Positions 58,810-59,261 of a DNA stretch of 64,000 bases are shown one piece after another. The stretch lies in the NCBI RefSeq assembly GCF_030384885.1, contig NZ_CP128613.1; one strand, 5' to 3'. Below the pieces are notes generated by a model, which worked only from the letters and a program-made list of their open reading frames with translations, had not been told where the DNA came from and did no database searches. Every line of letters begins with the position of its first letter. Within the stretch, counting starts at the first letter, position 1. The position numbers and the translations under genes are program-made. The DNA is from Escherichia coli (GTDB lineage: Bacteria; Pseudomonadota; Gammaproteobacteria; Enterobacterales; Enterobacteriaceae).

Positions 58810-59261
58810 TTCATCATTATTTATAATGAGTTGTAAACGGTTATTTTATTAGTGTTGGTAGTGATCTACAATAAGTATATTTTAAAGTGGGGGCGGAATT
58901 TTTAATAAAGAATTCATATGAGAAATAAAAATATAATTATGTTACTTATTGGCAGCTTGAGTTTGACAGGGGCGGGCAGGAGTATGAGGATAAAAATGTC
59001 AGCGAAAACAACCCACTACATCAACGGTTCAGAAAACATGTGCCGCTATACGCTGGAAATCTCCGCAGGCAAAAGATGAAGATTTACAGGGTTACAGTGC
59101 GGAATTTTTTCGTCTGATTGAACTGGCAGATGGCGTGACTGACATCAGTCAGTGATGACTTTTTAGCAAATAATTCCCGGACAGCCAGCTTATTTTCTGA
59201 CTGTCCGAATTGGTTAACAATTTGTTCCTGATACTCAATTTTTTGTTGATGAGTGTTCTTT

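Follow-up and report, generated by a model that had tools for sequence, protein, structure and literature searches.

Does the short interval between yfbL and elaD in this Escherichia coli genome hold a gene of its own, an RNA element or the remains of a larger gene? A preliminary description of the locus placed a large vWA-domain gene, yfbK, at this position in K-12 and proposed that the gap of roughly 450 bp is a scar left by its deletion, with a short open reading frame (ORF) that has a signal-peptide-like start as what is left of its 5′ end; the alternative offered was a genuine small protein followed by a terminator of its own. The interval was analysed as part of a 64,000-nt stretch of DNA (contig NZ_CP128613.1; the window), to which coordinates refer unless stated otherwise (Table 1). 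Comparison with intact yfbK and with other yfbK-less genomes indicates that the interval is very probably a non-functional remnant of yfbK, a gene for a 575-aa vWA-domain lipoprotein, after deletions.

Organisation of the yfbL–elaD interval

The gene order of K-12-type strains is yfbM–yfbL–yfbK–elaD–rbn, which confirms that yfbK lies between yfbL and elaD, and the window has the same order with the scar replacing yfbK. K-12-type yfbK consists of 1728 nt (575 aa) and is divergent from yfbL and convergent with elaD. The borders of the gap are soft. On the left, the longest yfbL ORF reaches 58809 and the RefSeq start is at 58782, which places the border at 58783, not 58810. On the right, ElaD of the window stops 14 codons early, and the last ~40 nt of the gap (about 59220–59261) are therefore former elaD coding sequence. 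The 452-nt interval has a G+C content of 36.7%, and the region from 58400 to 59700 is 100% identical to that of E. coli 2013C-4282 (NZ_CP027579.1). The divergent yfbL/yfbK intergenic region presumably houses the promoters of both genes; it is only about 61–70% identical to the K-12-type counterpart, and a promoter scan returned a single sigma-70-like site, fewer than the mean number in shuffled sequences, and this site overlaps the yfbL start.

Table 1. Features of the yfbL–elaD interval and its flanks in the window
Feature	Position	Strand	Remarks
yfbL (M28 family metallopeptidase)	57808..58782	−	RefSeq start; left flank
Divergent yfbL/yfbK intergenic region	58783..58917	none	Putative site of both promoters
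yfbK 5′ remnant, codons 1–44	58918..59047	+	Aligns to L002 2368–2499, yfbK nt 1–132
53-codon ORF, MRNKNIIMLLIGSLSLTGAGRSMRIKMSAKTTHYINGSENMCRYTLEISAGKR	58918..59079	+	From yfbK start codon to out-of-frame TGA in the 3′ remnant
Nested 27-codon ORF	58996..59079	+	GAGG at 58986–58989, 6 nt upstream
Junction 1	59047/59048		Codon 44 joined to codon 486
21-nt island, codons 486–492	59048..59068	+	BLAST match to L002 3823–3851; yfbK nt 1456–1476
Junction 2	59068/59069		Codon 492 joined to codon 548; within short direct repeat
yfbK 3′ remnant, codons 548–575 and TGA	59069..59155	+	Aligns to L002 4009–4095, yfbK nt 1642–1728
6-bp hairpin ACTGAC-ATCA-GTCAGT	59138..59153	+	Last yfbK codons (V-T-D-I-S-Q)
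Larger hairpin	59176..59209	−	Terminator-like; convergent yfbK/elaD intergenic region; 13 pairs
Former elaD 3′ coding sequence	59220..59261 (approximate)	−	Now 3′ of premature stop
elaD (deubiquitinase ElaD)	59262..60431	−	Right flank

Breakpoints were located by BLAST and MAFFT alignment to a K-12-type locus (L002) together with translation. The position of yfbK, its start codon, its first 44 and last 28 codons and its stop codon (TGA, 59153–59155) are all recognisable in the window, and 238 of the 1728 nt are left. The ATG at 58918 aligns to yfbK's own start codon in the K-12-type strain, as expected if the signal-peptide-like ORF begins with the 5′ remnant of yfbK. The 5′ remnant has 130 nt, compared with 132 nt in K-12, owing to two 1-nt deletions, by which the lipobox LSGC has become LTGAG and lost its cysteine. 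The 100-nt stretch from 59061, which contains the 3′ remnant, is 90% identical to K-12. Between the two ends lies a collinear, in-frame island of seven codons (IRWKSPQ in the window, IRWKYPQ in K-12), which is found in all seven scar alleles aligned; taken alone, it is a modest match, with an E value near 1e-4 for a small search space. Thus both ends of yfbK lie in the gap, which is a deletion scar as proposed and not ordinary intergenic DNA without homology to any larger gene.

Relative to K-12, the window lacks 1488 nt in two in-frame segments, one of 1323 nt (codons 45–485) and one of 165 nt (codons 493–547). These lengths account for the whole loss (1728 − 238 = 1490 = 1323 + 165 + 2). The second junction lies at a direct repeat, CGCAGG(G/C)AAAAG, which occurs twice in yfbK as CCCGCAGGGAAAAG and CTCAGCAGGCAAAAG. 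In K-12 YfbK, Pfam detects vWF_A (residues 102–199), VWA (216–383) and YfbK_C (393–568). Both vWA-type domains and most of YfbK_C are lost from the window, where only YfbK_C residues 486–492 and 548–568 are left; the remaining frame is shifted and encodes no Pfam domain. RefSeq/PGAP annotates 59063–59155 as a partial pseudogene, 'missing N-terminus'. Overall, homology to the 5′ and 3′ ends, an orthologous position, and loss of domains and frame are found together at this locus.

The scar is best explained by a first in-frame deletion of codons 45–485, which probably descends from a single old event (see below), and a second in-frame deletion of codons 493–547 between the two copies of the short repeat. 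Later decay has added the two 1-nt deletions here, and start-codon loss and other indels or stops in other alleles. As the island is short and its match modest, a single complex rearrangement could replace the two-deletion model.

In a gSELEX study, an LldR binding peak is placed inside yfbK at K-12 position 2,383,166 (PMC10272880). The peak falls in or near the yfbK segment that is deleted in the window.

Small ORFs and hairpins in the scar

Both ORFs described earlier, and the GAGG near 58996, are present. As a fusion that runs out of frame, the 53-codon ORF keeps to the yfbK frame for only ~17 codons; about two thirds of it is frame-shifted yfbK sequence. Its length is unremarkable: when the 452-nt interval was shuffled 2000 times with dinucleotides preserved, an ORF of 53 codons or longer was present in 47.5% of the shuffled sequences if any start codon was allowed, and in 28% with ATG only. 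Pfam has no match for the 53-aa product or for a 30-aa 3′ fragment, and the exact 53-aa sequence forms a one-member cluster in a collection of 15 billion proteins.

Six other genomes without yfbK were aligned with the window, those of BL21(DE3), WP2-W18-ESBL-10, CUPF09, an O102:H6 strain, SCU-109 and SX48. Neither the 53-codon nor the 27-codon frame is conserved in any of these six alleles. At the position of the yfbK start codon, BL21 has ATA, and SX48 and CUPF09 have GTG followed by a stop after 15 codons. Counted from the same position, a stop follows after 5 codons in WP2 and SCU-109 and after 17 codons in the O102:H6 strain, which carries a 16-nt deletion. The 27-codon frame lacks its start codon and contains stops in BL21 and SX48, and in the other common-scar alleles it is open only within a different, TTG-started ORF of 41 codons. 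In WP2 and SCU-109, PGAP calls yet another ORF of 44 aa, which is no more than the yfbK remnant in its own frame, starting at an internal GTG.

The hairpin followed by a T-run that had been noted downstream of the ORFs is also present. It consists of six base pairs, three of them G-C, and a 6-nt spacer (GATGAC) separates its stem from a run of five T residues at 59160–59164. The predicted folding energy is −15.5 kcal/mol in a 51-nt context (z −2.8), and the site is listed by a consensus terminator scan, although the short stem and the spacer before the T-run are weak features of a terminator. Intact K-12-type yfbK contains the identical hairpin with a weaker T-run (TGTTTAG). The hairpin is thus the 3′ end of the yfbK coding sequence, which argues against its description as the terminator of a small gene.

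These observations bear on the alternative that the interval encodes a real small protein (53 or 27 aa), which might be secreted by way of the signal-peptide-like N-terminus, with the retained yfbK promoter and ribosome-binding site driving its expression and the hairpin at 59138–59153 ending its transcript. The authentic yfbK start at 58918, with which a promoter and a ribosome-binding site may survive, the GAGG located 6 nt 5′ of the ATG at 58996, the terminator-like site 3′ of the ORF and the stability of the allele in a lineage of about 500 assemblies can all be cited for it. They are set against an ORF that is intact in none of the six other scar alleles, has a length at chance level, consists for about two thirds of frame-shifted yfbK without the lipobox cysteine, matches no Pfam family, clusters alone as an exact sequence, and is followed by a weak 6-bp stem that is itself yfbK coding sequence and is separated from its T-run. 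Within the lineage, the comparison covered one further assembly, whose 100% identity over 6170 nt is uninformative on constraint. We therefore regard a bona fide small protein as highly improbable. Low-level translation from the retained yfbK start is possible, judging from the sequence, but both ORFs are very probably accidental frames over decayed yfbK sequence.

A larger hairpin lies in the convergent yfbK/elaD intergenic region. Its 13 pairs are predicted to be more stable on the minus strand (dG −21.6, z −4.6) than on the plus strand (−16.7), and the K-12 counterpart has 15 pairs (dG −29.1, z −8.1). The tail, AATTATTTGC, is only moderately U-rich. In a comparison of two sequences only, those of the window and K-12, two pairs are changed on both sides (A-T to G-C and C-G to A-T); three further changes affect one side only and still allow pairing, as G-U, but only in the minus-strand RNA. 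This structure and this pattern of substitution suggest that 59176–59209 is most likely a terminator or 3′ stabiliser of elaD. The small hairpin is former coding sequence from the 3′ end of yfbK, and its larger neighbour would serve the convergent elaD transcript.

The two hairpins also raise the idea that a regulatory RNA or a cis element lies here and that the ORFs do not matter, since both fold better than shuffled sequences and the pairing of the larger one survives substitutions relative to K-12. A search of 58600–59400 against Rfam found no match at E values up to 1, the larger hairpin can readily be accounted for as the terminator of elaD and the smaller one as yfbK coding sequence, and the remaining interval is the most divergent DNA of the neighbourhood. 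Such an element has very little likelihood.

Scar alleles in E. coli and loss of yfbK in the genus

A shared scar of yfbK is common in E. coli. It is exemplified by BL21(DE3), O157:H7, O55:H7 and SX48, and resembles the allele of the window in junction 1, in the island, in its decay and in having no conserved ORF. With a 72-nt probe across both junctions, matched over at least 80% of its length, the common scar was found in 2579 of 5426 complete E. coli genomes (~47%), nearly all matches being at least 95% identical; a contiguous scar-type interval is present in 2571 of these 5426 genomes and the interior of yfbK is kept in 2540. Only one complete genome has the window-type allele, any other full-length match being ~72% identical at best. 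The allele is not private to that genome, however: proteins identical to YfbL and ElaD of the window are encoded on 550 and 515 contigs, respectively, in 501 blocks of the collection, and the lineage of the window allele comprises about 500 other assemblies.

The common scar differs from that of the window in its longer second deletion and in an identity of only ~70% across the interval. In the common scar the second deletion extends from codon 493 to 563, whereas in the window it ends at codon 547 and leaves 48 nt more; the left edge is the same in both, after CCGCAG, so that the common scar's second deletion may be nested with that of the window or may have arisen separately from an intermediate. 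Junction 1 has the form GTGCCGC(G/T)|ATACGCTGGAAAT and is identical in the window and in six of six common-scar alleles; it was read base by base in these seven alleles and is inferred elsewhere from the 72-nt probe.

The differences at the second junction, the extra 48 nt and the ~70% identity between the two scar types would be expected if the window had lost yfbK independently of the common scar, and a divergent genome (see below) does carry an independent yfbK deletion whose left breakpoint is close by. In all six common-scar alleles, however, the nucleotide position of junction 1 and the 21-nt island are identical to those of the window. This combination of an identical junction with the island makes an independent origin very unlikely, and descent of junction 1 from a single old event remains the preferred reading.

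The polarity of the change was considered with loci from elsewhere in the genus. A search of species-representative genomes with YfbL peptide patterns returned two loci; such exact patterns reach close relatives only. In the first (NZ_PTRE01000048.1, Escherichia sp. MOD1-EC7003), an intact yfbK of 581 aa lies beside yfbL. The same locus cleanly lacks elaD between yfbK and rbn; having yfbK without elaD, it indicates that the two genes have been lost independently in the genus.

The second locus (NZ_JAATUR010000019.1; reverse complement, 6107–6360) is labelled E. coli but is divergent, with ~85% identity to K-12 at the locus, and carries a different internal deletion of yfbK, roughly from L002 2487 to 3954. 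Like the window, it has an internal yfbK deletion, with a left breakpoint only ~12 nt away, and a short signal-peptide stub. Unlike the window, its right breakpoint is at about L002 3955, the island is absent, the lipobox is intact in the 41-codon stub ORF (MRNKNIIMLIIGGLILTGC...), and elaD is missing. At least two separate losses of yfbK have therefore occurred in Escherichia.

Intact yfbK in MOD1-EC7003, together with the ordered in-frame ends and island of the scar, shows that the change was a deletion and not an insertion. The opposite polarity would make the short form ancestral, K-12-type yfbK having arisen when a cassette encoding vWA domains was inserted into a small gene. Such an insertion might be considered because the two states are nearly equally frequent (2579 and 2540 genomes) and both junctions are in frame. 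Against it, intact yfbK occupies the same position in a distinct species, the divergent E. coli-labelled locus carries another internal deletion of the same gene, the internal seven-codon island is not predicted by an insertion, the scar alleles are frame-shifted and have no conserved ORFs, and YfbK_C with vWA is one widespread Pfam architecture. The insertion reading is already largely refuted, and we assign it almost no probability.

Divergence of the locus and significance of the scar

The scar coincides with a peak of divergence. From 58698 to ~59300, identity in 100-nt windows is 61–73% to K-12 and 51–84% to the common scar allele, in contrast to 94–100% identity in the flanks with either reference (for K-12, most of yfbL, elaD, rbn, elaA and elaB). 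The divergent block takes in the signal-peptide-coding 5′ end of yfbL (~58698–58782), which is ~70% identical to K-12 whereas the remaining yfbL is 94–98% identical, and it also takes in the 3′ end of elaD. Because the block includes these yfbL codons and the elaD 3′ end, the divergence is not explained by pseudogene decay alone. The block has diverged further than would be expected from neutral decay alone after a single shared deletion, a point against that simple history. The likeliest cause would be that haplotypes split long ago or that the block was imported from a distant lineage, the flanks being homogenised by recombination.

ElaD of the window has 389 aa, 14 codons fewer than the 403 aa of K-12, BL21, WP2 and SCU-109, and alignment to the K-12-type locus reveals a gap of 14 nt together with a new stop codon in elaD. 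Premature termination of ElaD in some branches was described in a 2025 survey (PMC12575377). Several genomes with the common scar, among SX48, BL21(DE3) and CUPF09, have yfbL annotated as a frameshifted pseudogene; elaD carries the same annotation in SX48, CUPF09 and the O102:H6 strain. In parts of the species, decay seems to affect the whole yfbL–yfbK–elaD neighbourhood.

Another variable spot adjoins the scar, in the nuoN–yfbM interval (56478–57053, minus strand, and 55767–56483, plus strand). It contains a YfbN-like gene with ~72% DNA identity to K-12 yfbN and an extra ORF of 191 aa, the 5′ half of which (~56750–57053) is without K-12 counterpart. The extra ORF has a weak, sub-threshold match to SMI1/KNR4 (SUKH-1), with an E value of 0.0016 and 19.4 bits against a cut-off of 25.4.

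Two further ideas, that the window lineage makes a lineage-specific 53-aa peptide from the retained yfbK promoter and start, and that loss of yfbK is adaptive, are jointly given a slim chance. At least two independent deletions, the ~50:50 split in the species and the island of deep divergence point towards adaptive loss. If the first idea is true, the 53-aa peptide, with its hydrophobic, signal-like N-terminus, would represent a recent 'gene from a pseudogene' that has become fixed in a clonal lineage; if the second is true, long-term balancing or antagonistic selection could act on a vWA lipoprotein exposed at the surface, which phages or the host might target, for example.

In the available text of the literature that mentions yfbK, no description of a yfbK deletion polymorphism in E. 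coli was found, and the 2025 paper on the distribution of ElaD does not discuss the genes neighbouring elaD. The scar is an ordinary pseudogene remnant that is already annotated; it represents a routine pan-genome difference and no new kind of element. Its importance is small beyond the right annotation: the interval is best labelled as a pseudogene remnant of yfbK, and neither of the two small ORFs (53 and 27 codons) merits a gene call. In the biology of the species, yfbK appears as a near 50:50 presence/absence polymorphism that goes back to one old, precisely shared junction, and two standard laboratory backgrounds, K-12 and BL21(DE3), differ at this gene. For those who work on YfbK or ElaD, the allele of a strain is worth knowing, as the 3′ end of elaD and its putative terminator adjoin the scar.
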